IMG/VR virus record: IMGVR_UViG_2529292909_000007 | Location: 1-19,664 of that record | Strand: one strand, 5' to 3' | DNA length: 19,664 nt | DNA from: a virus | Lineage: Monodnaviria > Loebvirae > Hofneiviricota > Faserviricetes > Tubulavirales > Inoviridae | Shown here: piece by piece, positions 2,741 to 10,305 of the stretch | How positions within the stretch are numbered: position 1 is the first letter of the stretch | How the letters are laid out: every line of letters begins with the position of its first letter | The notes under the pieces: generated by a model | Told to the model about the DNA's origin: nothing | Seen by the model: the letters and a program-made list of their open reading frames with translations, nothing else | The model's database searches: none | Program-made: the position numbers and the translations under genes

Positions 2741-3313
2741 TCACGGTACTTTTGGTGACGGAGCTGGTGAGGCAGGAAAATAACGATAAAGGGTGGAAAG
2801 GCCAATATCAAATATCAGTGCGATTTGTTTACGGGACTCGCCATTAGCCAGCAAACGGGCGATTTGCTCCCGCTCTTTCTCTGTCAGTTTCTGAGGTCTG
2901 CCGCCATGACGCCCCTGAGCACGGGCAGCAGCAAGACCCGCGCGTGTACGTTCAATAATGAGTTCCCGCTCCATTTCCGCCAGCGCGCCCATTATATGGA
3001 AAAAGAAACGTCCCATGGGAGTGGATGTATCAATATTGTCCGTAATGCTGCGGAAGTTAACGCCGCGTTGCCGGAGTTCTTCTGTTAAAAGGACAAGGTG
3101 CTGCATACTGCGTCCAAGGCGATCCAGTTTCCAGACCAGCAGGGTATCCCCTGGCCGGAGTCGCTTTAATGCGCGTTTAAGTCCGGGACGCTCCCTTGTC
3201 TTACCGCTTATTCTGTCTTCGAAAAACAGCTCACATCCTGCACATTCCAGCGCATTTCTTTGTAGCGCCGTATTCTGGTCATTTGTTGACACCCTGATAT
3301 ACCCAATCAGCAT
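2741..3313 (-). CDS. serine DNA invertase, Gin/Pin/Hin/Cin family (190 aa)
   Basis: MLIGYIRVSTNDQNTALQRN...VWKLDRLGRSM...FFFHIMGALAEMERELIIERT is near-identical in pattern to Mu Gin / e14 Pin, with catalytic Ser in the YIRVST motif and a C-terminal HTH. Confidence 0.9.
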   Translation of the reverse strand: MLIGYIRVSTNDQNTALQRNALECAGCELFFEDRISGKTRERPGLKRALKRLRPGDTLLVWKLDRLGRSMQHLVLLTEELRQRGVNFRSITDNIDTSTPMGRFFFHIMGALAEMERELIIERTRAGLAAARAQGRHGGRPQKLTEKEREQIARLLANGESRKQIALIFDIGLSTLYRYFPASPAPSPKVP

Positions 3314-3378
3314 ACGATTTCCTTATTATAAAAAGCCGGAATTGTCGCATGAGGAATAAAACAGAGTTAATCCTGGCT

Positions 3379-3404
3379 TTCCTGAAAACCTCGGTTTACG
3401 GGAA
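3379..3404. other. left inversion crossover site (gix/hix-like 26 bp site)
   Basis: TTCCTGAAAACCTCGGTTTACGGGAA resembles Mu gixL (TTCCTGTAAACCGAGGTTTTGGATAA, recalled) and lies immediately next to the invertase gene. Confidence 0.7.
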
Positions 3405-3470
3405 ACGGTGAATAAGGCGGCGAATGCTCTGCCATCGGACGGCACCGCCGTTGCCGCGAATAGACTCGCC
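3391..3470. repeat. left arm of ~80 bp inverted repeat inside the invertible segment
   Basis: 3391-3470 matches the reverse complement of 4630-4709 with few mismatches; both encode ...[17 protein letters not shown]... Confidence 0.8.
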
Positions 3471-3752
3471 ACCCCAAGAAATATTAATGGGGTTCCCTTT
3501 GACGGGACGAAGGACATAAACATCACTTCTGGTATAACACAGCAGGATGCGGATTCCCGATATATCCAGGATATCAGGCTGGGAGCAGAGAACAGGCAGG
3601 TAATGTACGGTGGGGCATATTACTCTGCGTACGGTAATGTTATGGCAGGCCTGCAGATTGACAGTAAAGTTGATGCTTCAAACGATTTTATAGCATTCAG
3701 ACCCCTGCAAAAATTAGTCGGAGGTACATGGATTACGGTATCTCAGTTATAA
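3408..3752 (+). CDS. alternative tail-fibre C-terminal exon (silent in this orientation)
   Basis: Frame is open back to the crossover site; begins with the same IR-encoded peptide ([26 protein letters not shown]) as the expressed fibre, then diverges. Confidence 0.6.
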   Translation: MNKAANALPSDGTAVAANRLATPRNINGVPFDGTKDINITSGITQQDADSRYIQDIRLGAENRQVMYGGAYYSAYGNVMAGLQIDSKVDASNDFIAFRPLQKLVGGTWITVSQL

Positions 3753-3803
3753 ATAGTCAGTAAATAATATATTTTAAAACAGATTTATTTCCAGGAGGAT
3801 TTT

Positions 3804-4325
3804 ATGGAACTAAAAAATATAACCCGTTATTATCCTGAAAATATGCCATATGGTAATAATGTTCAGTATTTCCAGAGTGAAGATGGTAAGGATTTCTACG
3901 AATCCCTGCCATTATTCACCAAAAAATATAAACTTTGCATAACACCTGACAGCGGCGTTATCTGCTCAATATCACAGGACGCCTCGGCGCTGTATCCTGC
4001 GGGGTTTTCTGTGGTTGAGGTCGATGAACTCCCTGAAGGCACGGATATTTCAGGAAACTGGAAGTTTGATAATGGCATAATCTCCCGTATTCCGGTTAAC
4101 TACGCAAGAAAACTGGAAGCAATGCGCCAGTCATATCTTAATCAGGCATATGAAAAAATTAATGACTGGAGAACGGAGCTACAACTGGGCACCATCAGCG
4201 ATGAAGACAGAGCAGCACTTACCCAATGGATGGCATACATCAGTCAGGTGAAGAAAATGGAACTACCCGCCATTAAAACAGAAGCTGAATTTAACGCCAT
4301 TAAATGGCCTGAGCAGCCACAGTAA
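3804..4325 (+). CDS. tail fibre assembly protein (Tfa/U-like chaperone), 173 aa
   Basis: AGGAGG before the ATG; lies immediately downstream of the alternative fibre exon; C-terminal region resembles the Tfa family. Confidence 0.75.
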   Translation: MELKNITRYYPENMPYGNNVQYFQSEDGKDFYESLPLFTKKYKLCITPDSGVICSISQDASALYPAGFSVVEVDELPEGTDISGNWKFDNGIISRIPVNYARKLEAMRQSYLNQAYEKINDWRTELQLGTISDEDRAALTQWMAYISQVKKMELPAIKTEAEFNAIKWPEQPQ

Positions 4326-4328
4326 TAA

Positions 4329-4348
4329 AGAAGGCCGGAAGGCCTTCT
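4329..4348. terminator. hairpin between convergent genes, candidate bidirectional terminator
   Basis: Perfect 8 bp stem AGAAGGCC / GGCCTTCT with GGAA loop between the Tfa stop (4325) and the fibre stop (4357). Confidence 0.45.
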
Positions 4349-4356
4349 GAATATCA

Positions 4357-8751: not shown

Positions 8752-8753
8752 AA

Positions 8754-8984
8754 TTACGCGACCTTACGAATGTAGCGGCTGGGCCAAATCTCCTCGGGCG
8801 GCACCCCCAGGCATTCCGCGATAATCCCCTCATACTTGGGAACATGGCGGTATACCGCGTTGTACAGATTGTTCTGACCCACGCCAGCTTTACGGGCCAG
8901 CGCCCTCATGCTTCCTTCTCTGGCTCTGACTTCCCCCAAAATTCTTTGAGGATGCCAATCAGGCTTAACTTCATTTCTCGCCAT
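8754..8984 (-). CDS. ner: Ner-like DNA-binding regulator (76 aa)
   Basis: MARNEVKPDWHPQRILGEV...EEIWPSRY carries the DWH and IWPSRY motifs of Mu Ner / Nlp; divergent from the repressor. Confidence 0.85.
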   Translation of the reverse strand: MARNEVKPDWHPQRILGEVRAREGSMRALARKAGVGQNNLYNAVYRHVPKYEGIIAECLGVPPEEIWPSRYIRKVA

Positions 8985-9167
8985 GATTCATCTATCCTAA
9001 AAAGTTACGAAATTTGATAACTAAACTTAGTTATCAAGTTTGATATAAGTATTGATCCACTTCTGCTTCATGTAAAGCAAAAAACATCTTTCTTTTGTTT
9101 ATTGTGGATCAATGGTTGCTGACAACACTAAAAGTTAATAATTTCAAATTGATAGGAAGAAAAGAAA
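8985..9167. promoter_or_regulatory. divergent promoter/operator region between ner and the repressor gene
   Basis: Perfect palindrome TTGATAACTAA-AC-TTAGTTATCAA at 9014-9037; inverted repeat TTGATCCAC (9052-9060) / GTGGATCAA (9104-9112); recurrent TTGATA half-sites; candidate repressor promoter TTGCTG (9116-9121), 17 bp, TAATTT (9139-9144). Confidence 0.55.
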
Positions 9168-9713
9168 ATGAACAAGCAAACAACAACATCTCTTTCTTTT
9201 CCTGGTGGTAGAAAAGAAAGCATTGCTGAGCGTCTGAAAAGGCTGATTGGCTCCCGCAGCGTCAGAGCTGCAGCAAGAGATTGGGGGCTTTCATTTTCAA
9301 CACTAAACAATTATCTGTCTCGTGGCACTGAGCCATCCTTAAGTGTCGCCCTTCAGATTGCGTCTATCGAAGGAGTAAGTGTTGAGTGGCTATGTGGATT
9401 CAGTGATGCATCACAAGTGAATCGGTGTGAGATCAAGGAAAATCAAGATGAAAGCAAGAAGATAATTATGACGATTATCAGCGCACTTGATGAAAAAGAC
9501 TTAGAGCAGCTATCGAAAAATTTGGTTCTGAATGGAGCCAAGTACTTAGCTCGGTTGTTAGAGCCTGAAAATCAAGATCTAATCCGCTTAGAAGGAAGGA
9601 AAAGAATAGCTGCATTACAGCTTGAAGGTATGTCTGACGAACGCGTCAGAGAGATTTTGGAAGAAACTGAGAGAAGTCGCAAATCTAACGCGGTAGAACC
9701 AAAAGCGGGTTAA
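9168..9713 (+). CDS. prophage repressor, CI/XRE-type HTH (181 aa), Mu c-position
   Basis: Divergent from ner-A-B; HTH-like segment SIAERLKRLIGSRSVRAAARDWGLSFSTLNNYLSRG; RBS AGGAAGA upstream. No peptidase S24-like C-terminal domain is evident. Confidence 0.65.
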   Translation: MNKQTTTSLSFPGGRKESIAERLKRLIGSRSVRAAARDWGLSFSTLNNYLSRGTEPSLSVALQIASIEGVSVEWLCGFSDASQVNRCEIKENQDESKKIIMTIISALDEKDLEQLSKNLVLNGAKYLARLLEPENQDLIRLEGRKRIAALQLEGMSDERVREILEETERSRKSNAVEPKAG

Positions 9714-9735
9714 TAGCATTAGCCCGCATTTTGCA
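9705..9735 (+). terminator. candidate intrinsic terminator after the repressor gene
   Basis: GCGGGTTAAT / ATTAGCCCGC stem (one mismatch) overlapping the stop codon, followed by ATTTTG. Confidence 0.4.
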
Positions 9736-9787
9736 CTATATCGAGTATTTCGCATTGTTTGGAACGCCTTAAAAGACTAAAACCACA

Positions 9788-9945
9788 GTATCAAATGAGT
9801 TGCCGATTTTATAATAAATGACTAATTATTGCACAATCGGTATCAAATAGACCTTATCCGCACATCTAGCCATCACCTGTTTTATTTCAGTATCTTACAG
9901 GTGATTTCACCTCCTTTCACTAAAACCCTTGTCGGTATCAAATGA
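9788..9945 (+). repeat. three direct repeats GTATCAAAT(G/A)(A/G) near the prophage end; candidate transposase end-binding sites
   Basis: Copies at 9788-9798, 9840-9850 and 9935-9945, same orientation, spaced 52 and 95 bp, between the repressor stop and the host fimbrial gene. Confidence 0.5.
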
Positions 9946-9954
9946 TTCACCTGG

Positions 9955-10305
9955 TTATACTATACCCAAACCGGAGGCCGTATTGCTTCCTTCATCCAGT
10001 TTCAACAAAGTATTATTTTCTGCATCCTCAATACCGTTAAATGCAACCCGAACCCCCGTTGTCCCTTTGCTGCATTCACTTAACGTAATCTGAAAAGGGA
10101 CGGCTGGACTTGTGCTACCGGTCGTTGGAAATTGTCTGGCACTGTTTTTTTGGAGATCTACGGTAAAATTAAGCGAATCCGATGAGACTGTGCAGCCATA
10201 ATCGAGGACGCGCCCGCTAATTTTAATAACGCTATCTGCGGATAAAGCAGAATAGGTGGTTAACCCCAGACATAAACCGAGGAAAATAATGTTATTGTAT
10301 TTCAT
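9955..10305 (-). pseudogene. ydeS: fimbrial subunit truncated at its C-terminus (116 aa), apparently by the prophage junction
   Basis: Signal peptide plus pilin-like N-terminal region, but too short for a complete subunit; lies directly downstream of the usher fragment. Symbol is from recalled K-12 synteny and is tentative. Confidence 0.55.

Follow-up and report, generated by a model that had tools for sequence, protein, structure and literature searches.

A Mu-like early region joined to a tail fibre module in Escherichia coli, read as the remnant of an Sp18-type prophage after an internal deletion

How a Mu-type early region comes to run directly into a tail fibre inversion module, with no virion genes in between, is the question raised by IMG/VR record IMGVR_UViG_2529292909_000007, a stretch of 19,664 nt (hereafter the window) that an exact match to the frameshifted B protein identified as the entire contig AIFY01000031.1 of the draft assembly GCA_000249655.2. 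An initial annotation had left two answers, a strongly reduced Mu-like prophage or a composite element carrying a fibre/esterase cassette, and had taken the tight gene spacing as the sign of a natural operon rather than of a deletion scar. The comparisons described below point to the first answer: the block is very probably a defective prophage of the Sp18 type, a Mu-like family of E. coli, which is inserted in the host gene ydeS and would have lost about 27 kb by one internal deletion.

The gene list is based on an open reading frame (ORF) map and on domain searches in Pfam, PHROG and PDB. All the genes named initially (repressor, Ner, transposase A, B, an ORF at the kil position, a 46-residue ORF, fibre, invertible segment, Gin and esterase) were recovered, the range first assigned to the block (2741-9955) holding each of them except the esterase (601-2655), which lies outside it. 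The absence of virion genes was also confirmed, since, apart from the fibre module, the ORF map and domain searches revealed none in between.

The joint at 5386/5387

When window positions 1-12000 were compared by megablast with 5,426 complete E. coli genomes, no genome covered the whole block. Positions 1-5387 matched the right arm found in complete Mu-like prophages, for example in FORC_069, colinearly and at 99.8% identity; for positions 5386-9960 the best match, colinear and 97.8% identical, was the left arm of the complete S1-CAM-01-A prophage. Beyond the point where the two matches meet, FORC_069 has YmfQ followed by genes for baseplate J, gp46, V, tape measure, tube and sheath and then by those of a Mu-type head, and S1-CAM-01-A has small early genes with gam and mor and, further on, lysis, portal and head genes. 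The presence of colinear arms of complete Sp18-type prophages on both sides of the joint bears out the idea of a strongly reduced Mu-like prophage. The features at the joint are the following:

5386-5387, no strand: deletion joint, placed by BLAST break points and a three-way alignment
5362-5421, minus strand: fusion ORF of 19 codons across the joint, placed by translations
5238-5385, minus strand: 3' remnant of a YmfQ/gp48-like baseplate gene, recognised by the identity of its C-terminus and containing the 46-residue ORF (5238-5378)

In the three-way alignment the switch is abrupt, the fibre-side parent being followed as far as ...CCGGTA and the early-side parent from TAAATTC... onwards, with just 2 bp (TA) common to both at the joint, which is located in the 55-nt gap between the 75-residue and 46-residue ORFs. 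The fusion ORF consists of the first 12 codons (MNMQSCGNKMNL) of an early gene of 84 residues, homologous to ECs_4948, followed by seven out-of-frame codons of the baseplate gene and a stop. The 46-residue ORF, initially taken for a gene, turned out to be the exact last 46 residues of the 186-residue YmfQ/gp48-family protein of FORC_069, and the overlap between its stop codon and the start codon of the fibre gene is the one native to the gp48-fibre boundary. The tight gene spacing, being inherited separately from each parent arm, is thus not evidence of a natural operon, and a precise joint with 2 bp of microhomology, flanked by two truncated genes, contradicts the operon view of the initial annotation.

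In Sp18 the break points are separated by 27,100 bp; in S1-CAM-01-A, where an extra insertion sequence (IS) is present, the distance is 27,514 bp. In complete phages the intervening DNA (about 27.1 kb) carries gam, mor and the lysis, head, tail and baseplate genes. With respect to Sp18, the window lacks about 27.1 kb extending from codon 13 of ECs_4948 through most of ECs_4988, and with it the full set of middle, late, lysis, head and tail genes that a functional phage requires. Within the region deleted here, a "tRNA-OTHER" is annotated in complete members between the head morphogenesis and virion morphogenesis genes (S1-CAM-01-A 2044-2123; L010 6829-6908).

The most economical history would be a single deletion by illegitimate recombination at the 2-bp TA microhomology, starting at codon 13 of the second small gene that follows B and ending at about codon 139 of the gp48/YmfQ baseplate gene. 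Such an event would have removed mor, the semi-essential early genes and the lysis genes together with every head, tail and baseplate gene, and would have joined a retained left arm (attL, c, ner, A, a frameshifted B and one small gene) to a native right arm. Two other routes to the joint were rejected. Neither an IS nor an IS scar is present at 5386/5387, although two relatives do have an IS at theirs. Intramolecular transposition of Mu gives rise to rearrangements from a Mu end, not from the element interior, and a MuA-mediated origin was discarded on this general knowledge of Mu.

The joint could also be the product of a chimeric contig, in which the early and fibre arms of one complete Mu-like prophage, or of two, had been wrongly connected. 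The window is indeed a whole contig of a draft whole-genome shotgun assembly, and its junction was found in no other genome or metagenome searched (0 of the 5,426 complete E. coli genomes, none of the GTDB species representatives in two exact-pattern scans, and no JGI metagenome contig). However, the 2 bp common to both sides offer no repeat that could mislead an assembler, the contig extends without interruption 5.4 kb to one side of the joint and 14.3 kb to the other, and comparable IS-free internal deletions occur in the finished genomes AST198 and DLI.5a. An assembly artefact is considered highly improbable in the face of these observations.

The edges of the contig are themselves repeats, a DUF826 gene at the start and an IS1 copy at the end (19175-19664, matched to the IS1A of HCP4S3_I4). 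The break in DUF826 is probably due to the repetition of this gene in lambdoid prophages. To the left of the window start, the arrangement of the relatives would predict the remainder of DUF826 followed by com, mom and attR. Head and tail genes are not expected there, because the complete relatives have them exactly at the deletion.

The Sp18-type family and the two arms

The complete relatives found in E. coli are Mu-like prophages of 38-39 kb. Sp18 of O157:H7 Sakai, the member that bears a name and has been studied experimentally, is Mu-like and measures 38.76 kb (PMC2669165, PMC7430833), its DNA is packaged (PMC2669165), and the Mu-like prophages of O157 strains occupy strain-specific sites (PMC7430833). 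In the genomes compared here the insertion site likewise varies from one to the next (elyC, citD, bcsA, rhsD, ypdB, cho, sorM, yfcC). On the basis of the differing insertion sites, the packaging of Sp18 and the strain-specific positions, the Sp18-type family is an active transposable phage.

The window shares the layout of Sp18, FORC_069 and S1-CAM-01-A in the left arm (c, ner, A, B and two small genes) and in the right arm (gp48-like gene, fibre, tfa, fibre tip, invertase, esterase homologue of about 680 residues, DUF1378, DUF826, com and mom), as far as the contig extends and with the exception of S1-CAM-01-A mentioned below. The family has the same terminal sequences, and nucleotide identity is 94-99.8% over most of both arms. 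Sakai Sp18 matches the window at 96.4% over 5386-8635 and at 78% over 9567-9957, where the immunity region diverges; its immunity region and invertase-esterase segment match at only about 70-78%. In its immunity region (c, ner and the 5' end of A) the window follows the S1-CAM-01-A type and not the Sakai type. The window further differs from Sp18 in having a frameshifted B and in being inserted in ydeS, Sp18 being in sorM.

The unequal best matches of the two arms (99.8% for the fibre arm to the best complete relatives, 97.8% at most for the early arm) would be explained if illegitimate recombination had taken place between two different Mu-like prophages in one chromosome. This would require all the intervening host DNA to have been deleted or inverted. 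In ydeS the left arm forms a single insertion of the normal kind. Immunity and early regions are in any case mosaic among complete members of the family, and nothing in the window calls for a second parent. A two-prophage origin is regarded as very unlikely, and a deletion within one Sp18-type prophage is the preferred explanation. The left-arm genes that it would have spared are listed below:

9168-9713, plus strand: c-type repressor, 181 residues (PHROG 3037, transcriptional repressor, 4.5e-60), divergent from the early operon
8754-8984, minus strand: Ner-type early regulator, 76 residues (Pfam HTH_35, 1e-21)
6664-8751, minus strand: MuA-type transposase, 695 residues (Pfam PF09299 Mu-transpos_C, 4.5e-17; PF02316 HTH_Tnp_Mu_1, 1.6e-8)
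5658-6589, minus strand: gene for a MuB-type AAA+ ATPase, disrupted (AAA_22, 2.4e-18; Phage-MuB_C)
5434-5661, minus strand: small early gene at the kil position, 73-75 residues in the family and a 75-residue ORF here (PHROG 3375, function unassigned, 4.5e-46)

Early and right-arm genes lie on the minus strand, the repressor being the plus-strand exception. The repressor has the same length as that in the complete prophage of S1-CAM-01-A, and its HTH_3 match is weak (2e-4; 21.8 bits, under the curated cut-off of 23). The transposase is also of full length relative to S1-CAM-01-A. A scan for promoters and terminators, which returned counts not above those in shuffled sequence, was drawn on for two plausible sites only; a candidate early promoter, by consensus match only, is at 9076-9048. 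The gene B named in the initial annotation is present, but it is not intact. Alignment with B of S1-CAM-01-A and JMF1 showed that one G is missing between 5843 and 5842, which changes the reading frame near codon 249 (of 310) and splits off the Phage-MuB_C domain, leaving a 269-residue ORF and a 65-residue ORF in another frame in place of the intact 310-residue protein of the relatives. This 1-bp deletion could be an error of draft sequencing. The ORF at the kil position, which had no Pfam match, is conserved in the family and is by position the homologue of Sp18 ECs_4947. The searches that the initial annotation had proposed for three of the ORFs gave PHROG 3375 for this one, PHROG 1833 for the fibre and the YmfQ C-terminus for the 46-residue ORF.

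The right arm carries the following features:

4357-5238, minus strand: tail fibre in its present orientation, 293 residues (PHROG 1833, tail fibre, 6.7e-141)
3379-4721, no strand: invertible segment (inverted 26-bp gix-like sites, inverted repeats and a flipped copy in a relative)
3804-4325, plus strand: tail fibre assembly protein, 173 residues (Pfam Caudo_TAP, 4.8e-19), co-oriented with the fibre only after inversion
3408-3752, plus strand: alternative C-terminal exon of the fibre, Sv'-like (tail-fibre PHROGs 2901 and 1833), promoterless in the present orientation
2741-3313, minus strand: Gin-type serine DNA invertase, 190 residues (Pfam Resolvase, 1.6e-51, and HTH_7; Mu Gin structures 4M6F and 3UJ3)
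601-2655, minus strand: NanS-p-like sialate O-acetylesterase homologue, 684 residues (Pfam SASA and DUF6645)
274-468, minus strand: DUF1378 gene (gene calls and Pfam; PHROG 494 for the 1-468 region), also in complete prophages
1-237, minus strand: most of a DUF826 gene, which overruns the contig end (Pfam), also in complete prophages

The constant part of the fibre extends from 5238 to about 4709, and its variable C-terminal part is within the invertible segment; the same 293-residue fibre gene is found in complete prophages, and a terminator-like hairpin is present 3' of it at 4348-4329. The alternative exon has a 16-residue joint in common with the fibre, the two providing alternative C-terminal ends. 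The gix-like sites, at 3379-3404 (TTCCTGAAAACCTCGGTTTACGGGAA) and 4696-4721 (TTATCGATAACGTCGGTTTACGGGAA, minus strand), each with a central TC, are at or just beyond the outer ends of inverted repeats reported as 86 nt with 90% complementarity (3384-3469 and 4631-4716). In NCCP 13983 the stretch corresponding to window 3375-4726 is inverted, at 99.2% identity and with colinear flanks, which demonstrates flipping in the family, not in the source strain. The flipped state of NCCP 13983 encodes a 296-residue fibre with the other tip, followed by the assembly gene. There is a single fibre assembly gene in the segment, and the 293-residue fibre of the window has no co-oriented one.

For the invertase, the match to the Mu Gin structures covers residues 1-184 (2.5e-88). 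The esterase homologue matches NanS (3PT5, 1.8e-117, residues 110-428) and the C-terminal domain of NanS-p (6YP6, 7.1e-98, residues 469-683). The NanS-p proteins of Shiga toxin (Stx) phages have an N-terminal DUF1737 domain; in residues 1-110 of the homologue there was no Pfam match at E<=0.01, hence no DUF1737 was found. In complete members the native right arm runs from the fibre and the invertible segment through the invertase and the esterase homologue to DUF1378, DUF826, one or two small ORFs and finally com and mom, and in Sp18 the order is fibre, tfa, fibre fragment, invertase, a 679-residue protein, small genes, com and mom. What the initial annotation had considered a possible cassette is therefore the right arm native to FORC_069 and Sakai Sp18. 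S1-CAM-01-A is a complete member that has neither the invertase nor the alternative fibre tip, with about 300 bp (17683-17988) between the assembly and esterase genes, which means that the invertible module is variably present in the family. Genes for a NanS-p-like esterase, DUF1378 and DUF826 typically belong to the late region in lambdoid and Stx prophages. Their position between gin and com in a Mu-like family suggests an old transfer of a module between phage types.

Phage Mu itself resembles the window in the order of the early region and in the logic of the invertible fibre module (c-ner-A-B-kil ... S-U-G segment-gin-com-mom), in its Gin, in the com and mom genes present at the right end of the window's relatives, and in 26-bp gix-like sites with the AAACC-TC-GGTTT core of the gix consensus. 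The window differs from Mu in its short fibre of 293 residues, in the single assembly gene of the invertible segment, and in the esterase homologue, DUF1378 and DUF826 inserted between gin and com. In a phage collection, no nucleotide-level similarity to Mu or D108 was detected and no close isolated phage was present, the only close entries being Mu-like inserts inside Stx phage records; the transposase gene had an 81% match in Yersinia phages.

Left end, insertion site and neighbouring DNA

The chromosomal flank is that of E. coli, with the fimbrial genes ydeS and ydeT and an AraC-type fragment. The boundary features are:

9714-9959, minus strand: left end of the prophage (attL side), placed by aligning the ends of four independent insertions, by flank comparison and by the intact ydeS sequence
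9960-10305, minus strand: 5' part of ydeS, interrupted by the prophage (match to E. coli ydeS from 9960 on; Pfam Fimbrial domain)

The terminus of the element is at 9959, the minus strand beginning there with 5'-TATAACCAGGTGAATCA... Three repeats of the motif TTTGATAC(CGA), at 9942-9932, 9847-9837 and 9795-9788, are all within 172 bp of the end. They are presumed to be transposase-binding sites, and the TTTGATAC motif is found at the right end of the relatives as well. The interrupted ydeS ORF, of 116 residues, terminates within phage DNA. The neighbouring ydeT (10319-11467) is an usher pseudogene with the customary N-terminal truncation, as in other E. coli. A comparison of the same locus in related genomes, as had been proposed, offered no counterpart, none of the 5,426 complete E. 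coli genomes searched having a prophage in ydeS.

Both flanks were available for five relatives, and in each of these the Sp18-type prophage lies between direct repeats of 4 bp, where Mu has 5 bp:

S1-CAM-01-A: CGTC
JMF1: ATAC
DLI.5a: CAGT
HCP4S3_I4: CTCT
Sakai Sp18: TTTA

A 5-bp target duplication for the ends of this family was tried and failed in three relatives. By extension, the target duplication of the window element is predicted to be CTAT. The termini of the element read 5'-TATAGCGCGG...CCTGGTTAYA-3', most copies thus ending in TA, not CA; the base 3' of GGTTAY is A in every case, regardless of the host base (window 9957-9963 and relatives). No description of 4-bp repeats or TA termini was found in the papers searched.

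Further along the contig, by the host yneL/ydeT region, lies a second prophage, filamentous and inovirus-like, which occupies window 12216-19200 on the minus strand:

12519-13517, minus strand: secretin/pIV-like protein
13801-14925, minus strand: Zot/pI-like protein
14943-15230, minus strand: DUF2523 protein
15251-16945, minus strand: 564-residue ORF at the pIII position
18280-18627, minus strand: gpV-like single-stranded DNA-binding protein

A dif-like site with three mismatches at its edge (12216-12243) suggests integration at dif of the XerCD type. The best E. coli matches of this prophage are only about 87% identical.

Deleted relatives and the fate of the remnant

At least four other finished E. 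coli genomes carry independent internal deletions of an Sp18-type phage:

AST198: B'::tfa' joint, from B to the assembly gene, with no IS
DLI.5a: A'::sheath'::... joints, from A to a sheath fragment and on to further fragments, with no IS
JMF1: IS903B at the joint, between the early genes and the fibre
HCP4S3_I4: IS1A at the joint, between B and the esterase

As in the window, both arms were kept and the virion genes were lost in these four, each of which has its own break points and insertion site; two of them have an IS at the joint, the window none.

The retention of the same two arms in several independent derivatives could also be taken to favour an evolved, compact, mini-Mu-like composite element, organised as one operon with the fibre and esterase cassette as cargo and spreading as such. 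Also in favour of such an element, c, ner and A are of full length, the gin gene and gix sites are intact and the esterase ORF is complete. Nevertheless, the joint truncates two genes out of frame, B is frameshifted, every derivative has a different joint, and the element has not spread, its junction being restricted to this contig in all the genome and metagenome collections mentioned above. The probability of such an element is regarded as close to nil. The unique junction and the lack of spread argue against an evolved compact mobile element; the available sequences point to a strain-specific decay product of an Sp18-type prophage that has not spread.

Four points weigh against this history. 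The right end and the target duplication are beyond the contig, and the integrity of the element as a unit is deduced from relatives. An intact prophage in ydeS was present in no genome searched, leaving the direct ancestor unobserved. The inequality of the best matches (99.8% for the fibre arm, 97.8% for the early arm) makes an origin from two prophages conceivable. Finally, both the junction and the frameshift in B rest on one draft assembly without read support.

If the deletion occurred as proposed, its consequences can be anticipated from what the remnant retains in full length, namely c, ner, A, gin, the gix sites, the fibre gene and the esterase ORF. Judging from Mu biology, the element could not form particles. 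With the late activators and promoters gone, the only transcription left to the fibre would be read-through from the early promoter, which the repressor keeps off. Gin would probably still flip the segment, as gin and the gix sites look intact, although this would have no phenotypic effect. The esterase may or may not be expressed from the remnant. With A intact and B broken, derepression would lead at most to inefficient transposition resembling that of mini-Mu.

Laboratory mini-Mu derivatives consist of the Mu ends with c, ner and A, the internal genes being deleted, and are in principle transposable and particle-less. The window differs from them in its natural origin, in its broken B and in having the right end beyond the contig. 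In a bolder proposal, the remnant would be a natural mini-Mu, equipped with c, ner, an intact A and both ends and still able to move or to rearrange the chromosome when derepressed, and the repeated survival of both arms in several lineages of E. coli would reflect selection on the cargo of the right arm (the NanS-p-like esterase, possibly gin and mom), with the left arm kept for immunity. This combined proposal is unlikely and is offered as speculation.

In summary, what had the appearance of a new composite element is very probably the result of routine decay in a prophage of well-known type, and its break point is mapped to the base. As such, it would provide a small and clean example of microhomology-mediated prophage decay. 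It also adds one more case to a series of Sp18-type internal deletions that keep both arms, a series that may be used to ask which prophage genes are retained by selection.

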